Source: Escherichia phage QL01. Taken from it: a DNA stretch of 64,000 nt. The translations under genes and the position numbers were made by a program. The first letter of the stretch is position 1, and every line of letters begins with the position of its first letter. The notes below the pieces were generated by a model. That model ran no database searches, was not told where the DNA came from, and saw only the letters and a list, made by a program, of their open reading frames with translations. This document shows, piece after piece, positions 50,789-52,121 of this stretch. The DNA is taken from sequence record NC_028847.1. One strand, 5' to 3'.

Positions 50789-51028
50789 TCACGCTTTCTT
50801 AGCGATTTTCCAGTCAGCTTTAAATTGGTCGACATCAGAGCGGTGAATCCAGAAGCCAGATGAGCTACCGTCTTCATAAAGTGGGCAGCCATCACACTCA
50901 TCTTTCCAACCCATCGCACACAAAGCTTGTTCAGCTTTTTCCAGAGCTTCCGGGTTATTACCTTGGATTGTGAAATACCATTTGCCTTTAACTTCAGAAT
51001 CGTTGATTGATTCACGTTGTAATTTCAT
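50789..51028 (-). CDS. hypothetical protein (frd.x, early)
   Basis: 79 aa; AAGGAGAATAAA-ATG leader; early promoter upstream. Confidence 0.55.
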
Positions 51029-51053
51029 TTTATTCTCCTTAGTTGATAAGGCT

Positions 51054-51083
51054 ATAGTATCACTACCATAGCCTGGTGTAAAC
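51054..51083 (-). promoter_or_regulatory. early promoter GTTTAC-N18-TACTAT
   Basis: Motif upstream of 50789..51028 ORF. Confidence 0.55.
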
Positions 51084-51311
51084 TTATTTTTGAATTAAGC
51101 CCATATAAAATTTAGCGTCTTCCGGGTGCATACCGTCACAATACTCGTCAGCCATAAAGCGGGTAAGGTCTTCAAGAGGACCTTGGACTTCAATTTGCAT
51201 ACTACAGAATTGGGTATCTTTAATATGGGTCATAACTAAAGAAGGATAACGATTACGGATAACTTCGTAAGTGTATTCAAAATCAACGATATCAATATTA
51301 ACCTTAGCCAT
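51084..51311 (-). CDS. hypothetical protein (frd.x, early)
   Basis: Start at internal ATG (MAKVNIDIV...) with GAGGAAAA SD; early promoter upstream. Confidence 0.55.
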
Positions 51312-51343
51312 TTTATTTTCCTCACTCATTAGTTGATAGGTCT

Positions 51344-51372
51344 ATAGTATCATGTTTAAAGGCATTGTAAAC
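51344..51372 (-). promoter_or_regulatory. early promoter GTTTAC-N17-TACTAT
   Basis: Motif upstream of 51084..51311 ORF; cassette nearly identical to 52057..52085. Confidence 0.55.
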
Positions 51373-51374
51373 AC

Positions 51375-51635
51375 TTATTTTTGAATTTTATCAAGCCATT
51401 TACCAAGCTTAATCATTTCTTTGGTAGCTTTTTCCATACTTCTAAATTTAACCAGTAAAGGTTGGGCATCAACACCCATAACTAAGGTGGTTACAAGACT
51501 ATGTTCACCTACAAGCCATAATGAATAAGTTTGGATATCGAGCCCGTAATTTCGGTCTTTATGAACTCGTACACCCATCACTTCAAATTTCTCACTGGCT
51601 TTTTCTACTGCATCCAGGAAATCATCTTTAGTCAT
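51375..51635 (-). CDS. hypothetical protein (frd.x)
   Basis: Start at internal ATG (MTKDDFLDAV...) abutting upstream stop. Confidence 0.45.
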   Translation of the reverse strand: MTKDDFLDAVEKASEKFEVMGVRVHKDRNYGLDIQTYSLWLVGEHSLVTTLVMGVDAQPLLVKFRSMEKATKEMIKLGKWLDKIQK

Positions 51636-51636
51636 A

Positions 51637-52026
51637 TTAGGCCTTAAAAGTTTTTTGCAAAAGTTCAATGATTTGGTCAACGTTCTGTTCGGTGACAATG
51701 CAATGGATTTGAGTCACACCGGCCTTAGCAATAGGCTCATCGATTTCTTTATCTTCCACAACATATTCACGGAAGCAATAGAACTCGTCTTCATGCAACT
51801 CAAAATAATTTGGCACCAACCCAACTTCATTATAAATCTCGCCGTTAGCGCATTCGATTTCAGTCACAAATTTGTCGCCATCCATAGTCACCATATCCTT
51901 TACTTCAAACCAACCGCCGTTGTCTTGGATAAGGCCGACCATGCTTTTATTATTTTCATATTCGTCCATTTCAATAAAGTCTTTAATGCATTCAGGACGA
52001 AGTTCATAAGTTTTACCGATTTCCAT
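51637..52026 (-). CDS. hypothetical protein (frd.x, early)
   Basis: 129 aa; GAGGAAAT SD; early promoter upstream. Confidence 0.55.
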   Translation of the reverse strand: MEIGKTYELRPECIKDFIEMDEYENNKSMVGLIQDNGGWFEVKDMVTMDGDKFVTEIECANGEIYNEVGLVPNYFELHEDEFYCFREYVVEDKEIDEPIAKAGVTQIHCIVTEQNVDQIIELLQKTFKA

Positions 52027-52056
52027 TTTTATTTCCTCATGTAGTTGATAGGGCCT

Positions 52057-52085
52057 ATAGTATCATGTTTAAAGGCGTTGTAAAC
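52057..52085 (-). promoter_or_regulatory. early promoter GTTTAC-N17-TACTAT
   Basis: Motif upstream of 51637..52026 ORF. Confidence 0.55.
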
Positions 52086-52101
52086 CATTAAATGCCAAAA
52101 A

Positions 52102-52121
52102 GGGAAGACCGAAGTCTTCCC
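52102..52121 (-). terminator. hairpin terminator after gene 32 (GGGAAGAC-UUCG-GUCUUCCC)
   Basis: 8-bp perfect stem, UUCG loop, U-run on minus strand. Confidence 0.7.

Follow-up and report, generated by a model that had tools for sequence, protein, structure and literature searches.

Probable PeSL-type early promoter cassettes in front of conserved small genes between frd and gene 32 of Escherichia phage QL01, and their rare use in recombination

What do repeated promoter cassettes contribute to the genome of a T4-like phage beyond starting the transcription of the genes behind them? This question is raised by a 64,000-nucleotide stretch of Escherichia phage QL01 (NC_028847.1; hereafter the window), in which three early promoter cassettes on the minus strand, designated C1, C2 and C3, precede small open reading frames (ORFs) located between frd and gene 32. 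A first-pass annotation, made from the nucleotide sequence alone, had described the three as nearly identical and had regarded the small ORFs as candidates for recently exchanged host-takeover or anti-defence cargo. The kind of element that it invoked as a mediator of modular shuffling is indeed on record as early promoter-plus-stem-loop elements (PeSLs; PMC2839356, PMC4122927), combining an AT-rich region that holds the stop of the preceding gene with a sigma-70 promoter, a stem-loop mostly placed between the -35 and -10 hexamers or overlapping the -10, a Shine-Dalgarno (SD) sequence and the ATG (PMC2839356). The analysis makes it quite likely that C1, C2 and C3 are PeSL-type early promoter/translation-initiation cassettes in front of the conserved genes frd.2, frd.3 and frd.1, with a rare, documented use in homologous recombination. 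Over the 3.2 kb around the block, identity is 99.7% to Salmonella phage vB_SalD_ABTNLS3 and 91-98% to WG01, IME08, JS10 and JS98, and because of these values the genome is assigned by sequence to Dhakavirus, as a JS98-type T4-like phage. On the minus strand the order is gene 59, gene 32, the gene-32 terminator, frd.2, orf86, frd.3, frd.1, frd, td, a DUF4326 ORF and nrdA, which is unlike T4 in that frd.2 here stands ahead of frd.3 between gene 32 and frd.

All three cassettes are real and follow a common plan, namely GTTTAC, a spacer of 17 or 18 nt, a TG-extended TACTAT, the leader AGNCCTATCAACTA, an A-rich SD and the ATG; the positions 52057, 51344 and 51054, around which the first-pass annotation had placed them, are their -10 hexamers. 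C1 (52024-52085, minus strand, as are all cassettes below) comprises the -35 GTTTAC at 52080-52085, a 17-nt spacer, the TG-extended -10 TACTAT at 52057-52062, the leader AGGCCCTATCAACTACAT, the SD GAGGAAATAAAA and the frd.2 ATG at 52024-52026. The intrinsic terminator of gene 32 (52097-52121, minus strand; GGGAAGAC-UUCG-GUCUUCCC followed by a T-run, found by terminator scan and RNA folding) acts as the stem-loop component of C1 and is kept in all Dhakavirus relatives compared, and the AT-rich stretch of C1 consists of the T-run of this terminator followed by GGCATTTAATG. C2 (51309-51387) begins with the AT-rich block ATTCAAAAATAA, within which the last codons and the stop of orf86 are located, followed by the -35 at 51367-51372, the spacer AATGCCTTTAAACATGA (16 of its 17 positions as in C1), the -10 at 51344-51349, the leader, the SD GAGGAAAATAAA and the frd.3 ATG at 51309-51311. 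C3 (51026-51096) carries the same AT-rich block with the frd.3 stop, the -35 at 51078-51083, an 18-nt spacer, the -10 at 51054-51059, the leader, the SD GGAGAATAAAA and the frd.1 ATG at 51026-51028. Examination of the AT-rich block placed the upstream stop codon of C2 and C3 at 0-2 nt from the -35, and at the 3' ends of the cassettes SD and start codon read GAGGAAATAAAAATG, GAGGAAAATAAAATG and GGAGAATAAAATG. The predicted transcription start (+1) is the A of ATCAACTA, seven bases past the -10. The start region CTATCAA(C/A)(T/A)A, in which the A of ATCAA is the predicted +1, is kept in early promoters of Dhakavirus, T4, RB69, S16 and Gaprivervirus.

Several scans converge on these sites. The motif GTTTAC-N16-19-TACTATAG matched four times in the window against 0.00 expected (100 shuffles), all on the minus strand, at 52055-52085, 51342-51372, 51052-51083 and 9599-9630. 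An independent sigma-70 scan returned the same three sites of the block as TTTACA-16/17-TACTAT, each with a TG-extended -10, and the combined promoter and terminator scan placed GGGAAGACTTCGGTCTTCCC plus a T-run at 52102-52121, corresponding to the gene-32 terminator. In an unbiased direct-repeat scan of the whole window the cassettes emerged as families D4, D7, D9, D10 and D12.

Is this similarity more than what promoters of one class are bound to share? Altogether, 11 minus-strand early-promoter cassettes were recognized in the window, with GTTTAC, TA(C/T)TAT, a leader of the form AGACCTAYCAAMWA, an SD of the type (AT)GAGGA/GGAG, an A-rich stretch and the ATG. The further copies that the first-pass annotation had placed at 9601, 25436, 43820, 36315 and 36721 are real, and three with -35 boxes at 55353, 42557 and 39926 had been missed. 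Hence, besides C1-C3, this class includes the cassettes at 9569-9630, 25405-25465, 39864-39926, 43787-43848 and 55291-55353, the cassette P42557 of the alc-pseT region (42491-42557) and the pair P36343/P36749 of the 30.x-rIII region (36271-36343 and 36677-36749, spanning 36271-36749; family D10), whose members are 406 bp apart and 93% identical over 55 nt of leader and SD. A separate repeat family of 'three identical cassettes' was rejected, as eight more early promoters of the window have the same -35, -10, leader and SD. Over all pairs of the 11, whole-cassette identity is 51-72%. The spacers are 28-68% identical, roughly 50% in general, in all pairs other than C1-C2, which reach 94% (16/17) and share 39 nt at 90%. 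For C3, alignment of the copies left the 12-nt upstream block ATTCAAAAATAA (family D12), shared with C2, as the sole match beyond consensus. By sequence, identity beyond consensus is thus restricted to C1-C2, apart from this C2/C3 block; the described near-identity holds for C1 and C2, while C3 belongs with them at the level of the consensus.

Part of the identity at the cassette 3' ends is explained by the SD block, because it is a known functional consensus: strong RegB/S1 sites in T4 early ribosome-binding sites follow GGAGRAYARAA (Uzan and Miller 2010, PMC3014915). The SD GGAGAATAAAA, present in C3 (51026-51040), P36343 (36271-36285) and P36749 (36677-36691), all on the minus strand, matches these 11 nt exactly, and these three sites are predicted to resemble the RegB/S1 sites of T4; C1 and C2 differ, having GGAAA where the consensus has GGAG. 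This difference suggests, by sequence likeness, that the three units might be shut off differently after transcription. Most of the cassette similarity reflects shared function, and the surplus identity of C1 and C2 would stem from a short patch that passed from cassette to cassette. It could be argued that the cassettes are ordinary early promoters throughout, with a similarity arising from promoter and ribosome-site selection and with breakpoints falling there since viable insertions or deletions need gene boundaries. Such an explanation would fit the consensus-level resemblance of C3 to C1 and C2, and the leader and SD motifs common to all 11 early promoters, the SD being of known function. 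However, the 16/17 identity of the C1 and C2 spacers falls exactly where the other copies are unconstrained.

Comparison of relatives argues in the same direction. All three cassettes and their genes occupy orthologous positions in 12 of 13 Dhakaviruses examined. The exception, AnYang, is missing frd.2 and orf86 and has one cassette with the left flank of C1 (the gene-32 terminator) and the start of frd.3 on its right; this cassette is a C1/C2 chimera, in which C1-specific bases switch to C2-specific ones within TGAGGAAA. The spacer of C2 is C1-like (aatgcctttaaacatga) in the window, ABTNLS3, ABTNLsp5 and FB, a variant ending in ctttaaacatga in Bp7, KIT01 and VR5, and C3-like (ggtctatgg...) in JS98, dhabil, CLB_P2, NC-G and UP19, whose C2 orthologues do have a hairpin spanning the -10. 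Each spacer type is found with either leader type, ctaatgagtgagg or ctacatgagg, and all four combinations thus exist within about 30 bp. Since P(frd.3), the promoter of frd.3, is of the hairpin type in Gaprivervirus and S16, the C1-like C2 patch of the window lineage is probably derived, which would imply inter-cassette conversion accompanied by loss of the hairpin. A spacer swapped as a patch with its flanks unchanged, and a junction inside a cassette as in AnYang, both argue against promoter selection as the whole explanation.

The synteny comparison bore out the expectation that ORF content between frd and gene 32 would not be identical among relatives. The slot after C1 is polymorphic, containing the alpha paralogue of frd.2 in the window, ABTNLS3, KIT01, ABTNLsp5 and dhabil, the beta paralogue in Bp7, VR5, NC-G, UP19 and FB, both in JS98 and CLB_P2, and neither in AnYang. 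IME341 (locus L027, 1738-3250) has four cassettes, with an extra module of promoter and frd.2 beta between frd.3 and frd.1. Its frd-32 interval is a hybrid, with a left half of Dhakavirus type and a right half of Gaprivervirus type (the 3' end of frd.3, promoter and frd.2 beta, and the frd.1 promoter), and this sequence pattern implies an inter-genus exchange that would be anchored in frd.3. Other differences have no cassette at their ends: frd.1 and frd can be separated by orf228/229, frd and td by a 68-amino-acid (aa) ORF, and genes 32 and 59 by a gene for a SegG-like endonuclease. A link between cassettes and such changes is clear for the C1/C2 junction of AnYang and, as described below, for the filled and empty frd.3 sites and the slot after P42557, while most insertions and deletions of the interval are not cassette-bounded. 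For the pair P36343/P36749, the intervening region is kept in relatives and no cassette-bounded polymorphism was seen among them.

Does a single gene travel with its cassette? Frd.3 is single-copy in 730 phage records, and the gene is found in five different contexts across genera. With P standing for a promoter cassette, SL for a stem-loop and P(SL) for a promoter with a -10-spanning hairpin, the order in T4 and G28 is 32, P frd.3, SL frd.2, P(SL) frd.1; in S16 it is 32, P 160.2, P 160.1, P(SL) frd.3 frd.2-beta frd.2-alpha, P(SL) frd.1, and its last two promoters are almost the same across about 60 nt; in Gaprivervirus it is 32, frd.2-alpha, P(SL) frd.3, P(SL) frd.2-beta orf232, frd.1; and in Klebsiella phage HMGUkp2 it is 32, P frd.3, P(SL) frd.1. 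In RB69 frd.3 lies elsewhere in the genome, between ORF145c and e.6, with flanking cassettes 285 bp apart that both start with ATAATTTACA. Yersinia phage ZN18 (L028, Tequatrovirus-type) has orf232, a single cassette and frd.1, and hence presents an empty site: the left flank of this cassette aligns with the left flank of C2 of the window, and the sequence beginning at its -35 aligns with C3 and frd.1. At least 178 records have this empty-site arrangement. In the window, the 291-bp unit of C2 core and frd.3 is surrounded by a direct repeat of 18-20 nt, ATTCAAAAATAA(GT)GTTTAC (family D12, minus strand), with its left copy at 51362-51387 (AATTCAAAAATAAGTGTTTAC...) and its right copy at 51071-51096. 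The repeat-bracketed unit and the matching empty site together have the footprint that would be expected, as far as sequence can tell, of recombination in the AT-rich/-35 part of two cassettes, which is where the PeSL model proposes it (PMC2839356, Fig. 3 legend). A scan of IMG/VR for Frd.3 returned 16 loci and added limited independent sampling. The reciprocal site of T4, where frd.3 stands between the gene-32 terminator and frd.2, was discarded as a further example, as only SD-type repeats (GAGGAAAAT) flank the gene and these are too generic. Near the same genes, T4 (NC_000866, L013) has at about 146,030-146,098 on the minus strand a hydrophobic ORF of 22 codons, MFAPYIMAAVMLVCLYLLIKAC, which is not annotated, has an SD of its own and is located downstream of the early promoter after frd.2 and ahead of frd.1.

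A comparable behaviour was observed at P42557, whose 33-nt core, TTTACAAACTCTTGRGAGCAGAGTATAATGCTC, recurs before e.6 of RB69 (L014:2228) with a compensatory G-C/A-T stem change. In viral contigs (L037-L044) this core precedes four different ORFs, with divergence beginning at the ATG: a 160-aa ORF follows it in five loci (including L038 and L043), and the window's own ORF starts with the same residues; a 153-aa variant follows in JS98, a 99-aa ORF in IME281 and e.6 in RB69-type genomes. The frd.3 unit with its 18-20-nt direct repeat and matching empty site, and a 33-nt core shared before unrelated genes, are additional arguments against ordinary promoters that merely look alike.

Are cassettes then preferred breakpoints? 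When the 64-kb window was compared with syntenic JS98 and VR5, counting differences of at least 40 bp and taking an end within 15 bp of a cassette as contact, 5 of 23 structural differences touched a cassette. A uniform null expects 0.8 (P about 0.001). Under a gene-junction null, with 13 of about 80-110 junctions containing a cassette, 5-7 contacts are expected (P 0.6-0.86) and there is no enrichment. Because the gene-junction null is not exceeded, the claim is limited to the use of cassettes in specific events and does not extend to hot spots. The absence of enrichment, together with a block that is fixed in about 79 of 80 Dhakavirus records, would suit promoters at which breakpoints merely coincide with gene boundaries; weighed against the copied spacer, the chimeric cassette and the frd.3 sites, that explanation is nevertheless considered unlikely. 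As to the insertions after genes 18 (1859-2560) and 19 (3242-3883), both on the plus strand, they are absent from JS98 and VR5 and each opens with a GTTTAC/TTTTAC promoter-like site. The ORF within the latter (3307-3888) has a weak match to the SegE GIY-YIG endonuclease, and that within the former (1887-2543) matched no Pfam family. The two could be homing-endonuclease insertions and not products of cassette recombination.

The stem-loops constitute the other half of the comparison with PeSLs, and C3 has the clearest one. Its hairpin (51049-51074, minus strand; AGGCTATGGTA-GTGA-TACTATAGCCT) has 11 bp, with a 3' arm made of the -10 hexamer plus 5 nt, and folds at -15.6 kcal/mol (P=0.013 by spacer shuffling); z is -4.3 in the core and -2.6 when folded within 81 nt. 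It stops just 5' of the predicted +1; lying wholly upstream of it, it can therefore form only in read-through RNA or single-stranded DNA. For C1 folding gave no -10-spanning hairpin, its stem-loop being the upstream terminator. Other -10-spanning stems in the window are those of P36343 (12 bp), P39926 (9 bp), P43848 (8 bp) and P42557 (6 bp), and the stem length summed over the 11 cassettes is 66, as compared to 44.1 +/- 2.9 after spacer shuffling. The 52 distinct cassette cores of the window and 19 related loci fall into two classes, a hairpin class with -12 to -23 kcal/mol and z <= -3, and a hairpin-free class that takes in every C1 copy, each adjoining a terminator. When ten cassettes in the same register were aligned, namely P(frd.1) and P(frd.3) of Dhakavirus, Gaprivervirus and Gelderlandvirus S16, 92.7% of the cells were paired as compared to 29-50% in slid controls, and the covariation score was reached by none of 500 shuffles. 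Compensatory double changes are observed in 4 of the 11 pairs, e.g., A-T to G-C and G-C to T-A, in paralogous as well as orthologous cassettes; one is located within the -10 itself (TACTAT to TATTAT), with the 5' arm changing from G to A to match. An Rfam scan of 50500-53300 at E<=1 returned nothing.

At which level would such a structure act? The inverted repeats spanning the -10 might, as cruciforms or hairpins in DNA, be targeted by an enzyme specific for structure or sequence, either a nuclease or a recombinase (endonuclease VII, for example, or a factor dedicated to them), and thereby actively cause recombination at the cassettes. This possibility draws on the 3' arm ending before the predicted +1, so that the promoter's own transcript never holds the hairpin, on the stems being kept by compensatory changes, and on the speculation of Arbiol et al. 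about a stem-loop-targeting protein (PMC2839356). However, one stem position is G.T in all ten aligned cassettes, a wobble that pairs on the sense strand only, and in the hairpin-class cores the sense strand folds 4-5 kcal/mol better than the antisense. Over all 52 cores this difference is only suggestive (Wilcoxon P=0.07), and the advantage is consistent only in the hairpin class, whose members are not independent. The sense-only wobble and the better sense folding favour a structure in RNA or in one strand over a symmetric cruciform. Moreover, the documented crossovers (AnYang and the frd.3 repeat) fall in the SD or in AT-rich/-35 parts and not in the hairpin, and C1 and C2 are hairpin-free, which leaves the action of these repeats as DNA targets quite improbable. 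By analogy with the one tested RB49 stem-loop (PMC2839356), the C3 hairpin may instead serve as an attenuator or insulator against upstream transcription.

A number of observations weigh against the interpretation of C1-C3 as PeSL-type cassettes used in recombination and define its reach. The description as promoter-plus-stem-loop modules is accurate for C1 and C3, but C2 of this genome has no stem-loop (fold z=+0.84), and the C3 hairpin has no U-tract and hence is not a canonical intrinsic terminator. The C1xC2 deletion junction occurs in one of about 80 Dhakavirus records, AnYang. The gene-junction null described above shows no excess of contacts, and two of the five cassette-touching differences are the insertions after genes 18 and 19, which are probably free-standing and endonuclease-like. 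The difference between filled and empty frd.3 sites is compatible with insertion as well as with deletion. Finally, the cassettes are promoters by prediction, as are their start sites and any action of the stem-loops as terminators or attenuators.

The small genes themselves are old. The frd.2 alpha paralogue (51637-52026, minus strand, as are the genes of the block that follow; 129 aa) matches Pfam FRD2 PF03197 (E=1.9e-35, 121.9 bits against a gathering cut-off of 29) and is 63% identical to T4 Frd.2; orf86 (51375-51635; 86 aa), the homologue of JS98 orf232, belongs to phrog_4423 (E=1e-49) and is 100% identical to JS98 orf232, with no match in a Pfam search; frd.3 (51084-51311; 75 aa from the second ATG) matches Phage_FRD3 PF05798 over residues 1-75 (E=1.7e-38, 131.4 bits, cut-off 28.1); and frd.1 (50789-51028; 79 aa) matches DUF5417 PF17438 (E=4e-35, 120.3 bits, cut-off 23.9). 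All four families are conserved across Tevenvirinae, and the proteins of the block are 70-95% identical within the genus. By these sequence criteria, the cassettes enclose genes long established and conserved in Tevenvirinae, and not newly acquired cargo. The notion of recent, cassette-borne host-takeover or anti-defence genes took its appeal from genes that are small, early, of unknown function and placed between promoter cassettes, and it could further cite the polymorphic slot after C1 (frd.2 alpha, beta, both or none) and the extra module of IME341. This polymorphism, however, concerns paralogues of the same family and not foreign genes. The distribution of the four families, the identity of orf86 to its JS98 counterpart, the orthologous positions in 12 of 13 Dhakaviruses and the single-copy state of Frd.3 in 730 records also contradict it, as do a conserved, fitness-relevant frd.2 in T4, where it is termed highly conserved and was the sole function-unknown gene scored as fitness-important in a CRISPRi-ART screen (PMC11879866). 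Family searches for the four ORFs found no defence-related annotation, and PDB sequence searches with all four proteins found no solved homologue. Recent cargo is therefore regarded as very improbable, and this part of the first-pass annotation is not supported.

For T4 Frd.2 an LSm-like fold has been predicted (PMC12152347). The mRNA of T4 frd.3 is among the most abundant T4 RNAs capped with nicotinamide adenine dinucleotide (NAD; bioRxiv 10.1101/2024.04.04.588121), and since an abundant NAD-capped RNA is a primary transcript, the T4 counterpart promoter is probably active, with a +1A start. The T4 GenBank and RefSeq records contain no promoter features in this region.

How these parts might work together can be formulated as follows. 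T-even-type sigma-70 early promoters would each open a short transcription unit, C1 that of frd.2 and orf86, C2 that of frd.3, and C3 that of frd.1 and frd. Each cassette would be organized, in order, as an A-rich block with the upstream stop, the -35, the TG-extended -10, the ATCAACTA start region, an A-rich SD of RegB/S1 type and the ATG. A stem-loop would shield the units from upstream read-through, provided by the gene-32 terminator for C1 and by the -10 hairpin for C3. Lying at gene boundaries as direct repeats of 60-80 bp, the cassettes would occasionally be used by phage homologous recombination, as documented by the AnYang deletion, and cassette recombination probably also shifted the unit of promoter and frd.3 between positions over evolutionary time, as the filled and empty sites would suggest. 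A more far-reaching joint reading, which is tentative and somewhat on the doubtful side, takes frd.3 with its promoter as a discrete single-gene mobile unit in Tevenvirinae and, at the same time, the -10 hairpin as a distinct insulator or processing element acting on read-through RNA only, and not as a classical terminator.

Compared with the PeSLs of RB49 and phi1 (PMC2839356), those of the window are likewise composite intergenic cassettes with several direct copies around small early ORFs, and in both systems recombination between adjacent copies can remove the intervening ORFs, with crossovers between SD and -10 or in the AT-rich region. However, the RB49/phi1 promoter is TTGACA/TATAAT and that of the window is the T-even type GTTTAC/TACTAT with TG; the stems here are A/T-rich without G/C tracts, and one of the three copies (C2) is without a stem-loop; the flanked genes are conserved families and not ORFans; and the cassettes of the window are known from sequence alone. 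In RB49, PeSL mini-circles were detected in infected cells by inverse PCR, for which g23 primers were the negative control (Arbiol et al. 2010, PMC2839356). The window and the T4/PST PeSLs have one promoter consensus in common, TTTACW-N17-TAYWAT (Comeau et al. 2014, PMC4122927), and 'half' or degraded elements stand beside insertions and deletions both here and in the T4/PST and KVP40/nt-1 comparisons; C1, with a stem-loop immediately before the promoter, fits the layout given there, whereas a hairpin of the C3 type differs in overlapping the -10. The interval between frd and gene 32 and the Dhakaviruses are not described in that work, frd is mentioned in neither PeSL paper (PMC2839356, PMC4122927), and for JS98 the PeSL literature has only 'PeSL-like sequences' near g43, with data not shown. 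Integron gene cassettes offer an analogy only: single-gene units at different positions, bracketed by short repeats and possibly with circular intermediates. Unlike integrons, the units of the window have no integrase or attC, each has its own promoter, and any movement would rely on general homologous recombination. With respect to T4 early promoters, the Dhakavirus set has a strongly conserved TACTAT and ATCAACTA start region, and the -10-spanning stems fall outside the classical description, which is reportedly that of Miller et al. 2003. Shared with T4 early promoters (Nolan et al. 2006, PMC1524935) are the -35 GTTTAC, the -10 TAnnnT, the A-rich upstream element, the C at -3 to -1 and the position before early genes.

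Adjacent to the block, gene 32 (52138-53043, minus strand), the upstream neighbour, is a 301-aa ORF annotated as gp32, the single-stranded DNA-binding protein, in all relatives, and frd (50200-50781, minus strand) follows directly after frd.1. The DUF4326 ORF in the nrdA.1 position (48988-49407, minus strand), between nrdA and td, would overlap the 3' end of td by 65 nt if started at its first ATG, and VR5 is without 287 bp at this site. Elsewhere in the window, 25465-31725 (minus strand) contains a tandem array of three paralogues, each about 2 kb long (707, 681 and 694 aa) and each matching PF03496, an Alt-like family of ADP-ribosyltransferases. Two Alt-like genes are present in each of JS98 and VR5, which results in a structural difference of about 3 kb from the window, and T4 has a single alt gene.

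For the biology of this group, these results temper the shuffling model, as the genes are old and conserved and the cassettes are no privileged breakpoints relative to other junctions in the 64-kb region. In practice, the cassettes can serve as landmarks for annotating early units and offer natural positions at which therapeutic Dhakaviruses could be engineered by insertion or deletion. If frd.3 with its promoter is a mobile unit, its ends would be the stop/AT-rich/-35 part of the cassette, with filled and empty sites in Dhakavirus as compared to Tequatrovirus, at e.6 of RB69 and in Gaprivervirus, and it would provide natural-history evidence for the PeSL mini-circle model beyond RB49 and phi1; if the hairpin is an insulator, then C2, in losing it through conversion between cassettes, would have joined two transcription units in the lineage of the window. 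The PeSL concept is extended to the JS98/Dhakavirus group, with natural examples of a cassette-by-cassette deletion chimera, of a repeat-bracketed single-gene unit with its empty site and of compensatory evolution of a -10 hairpin.

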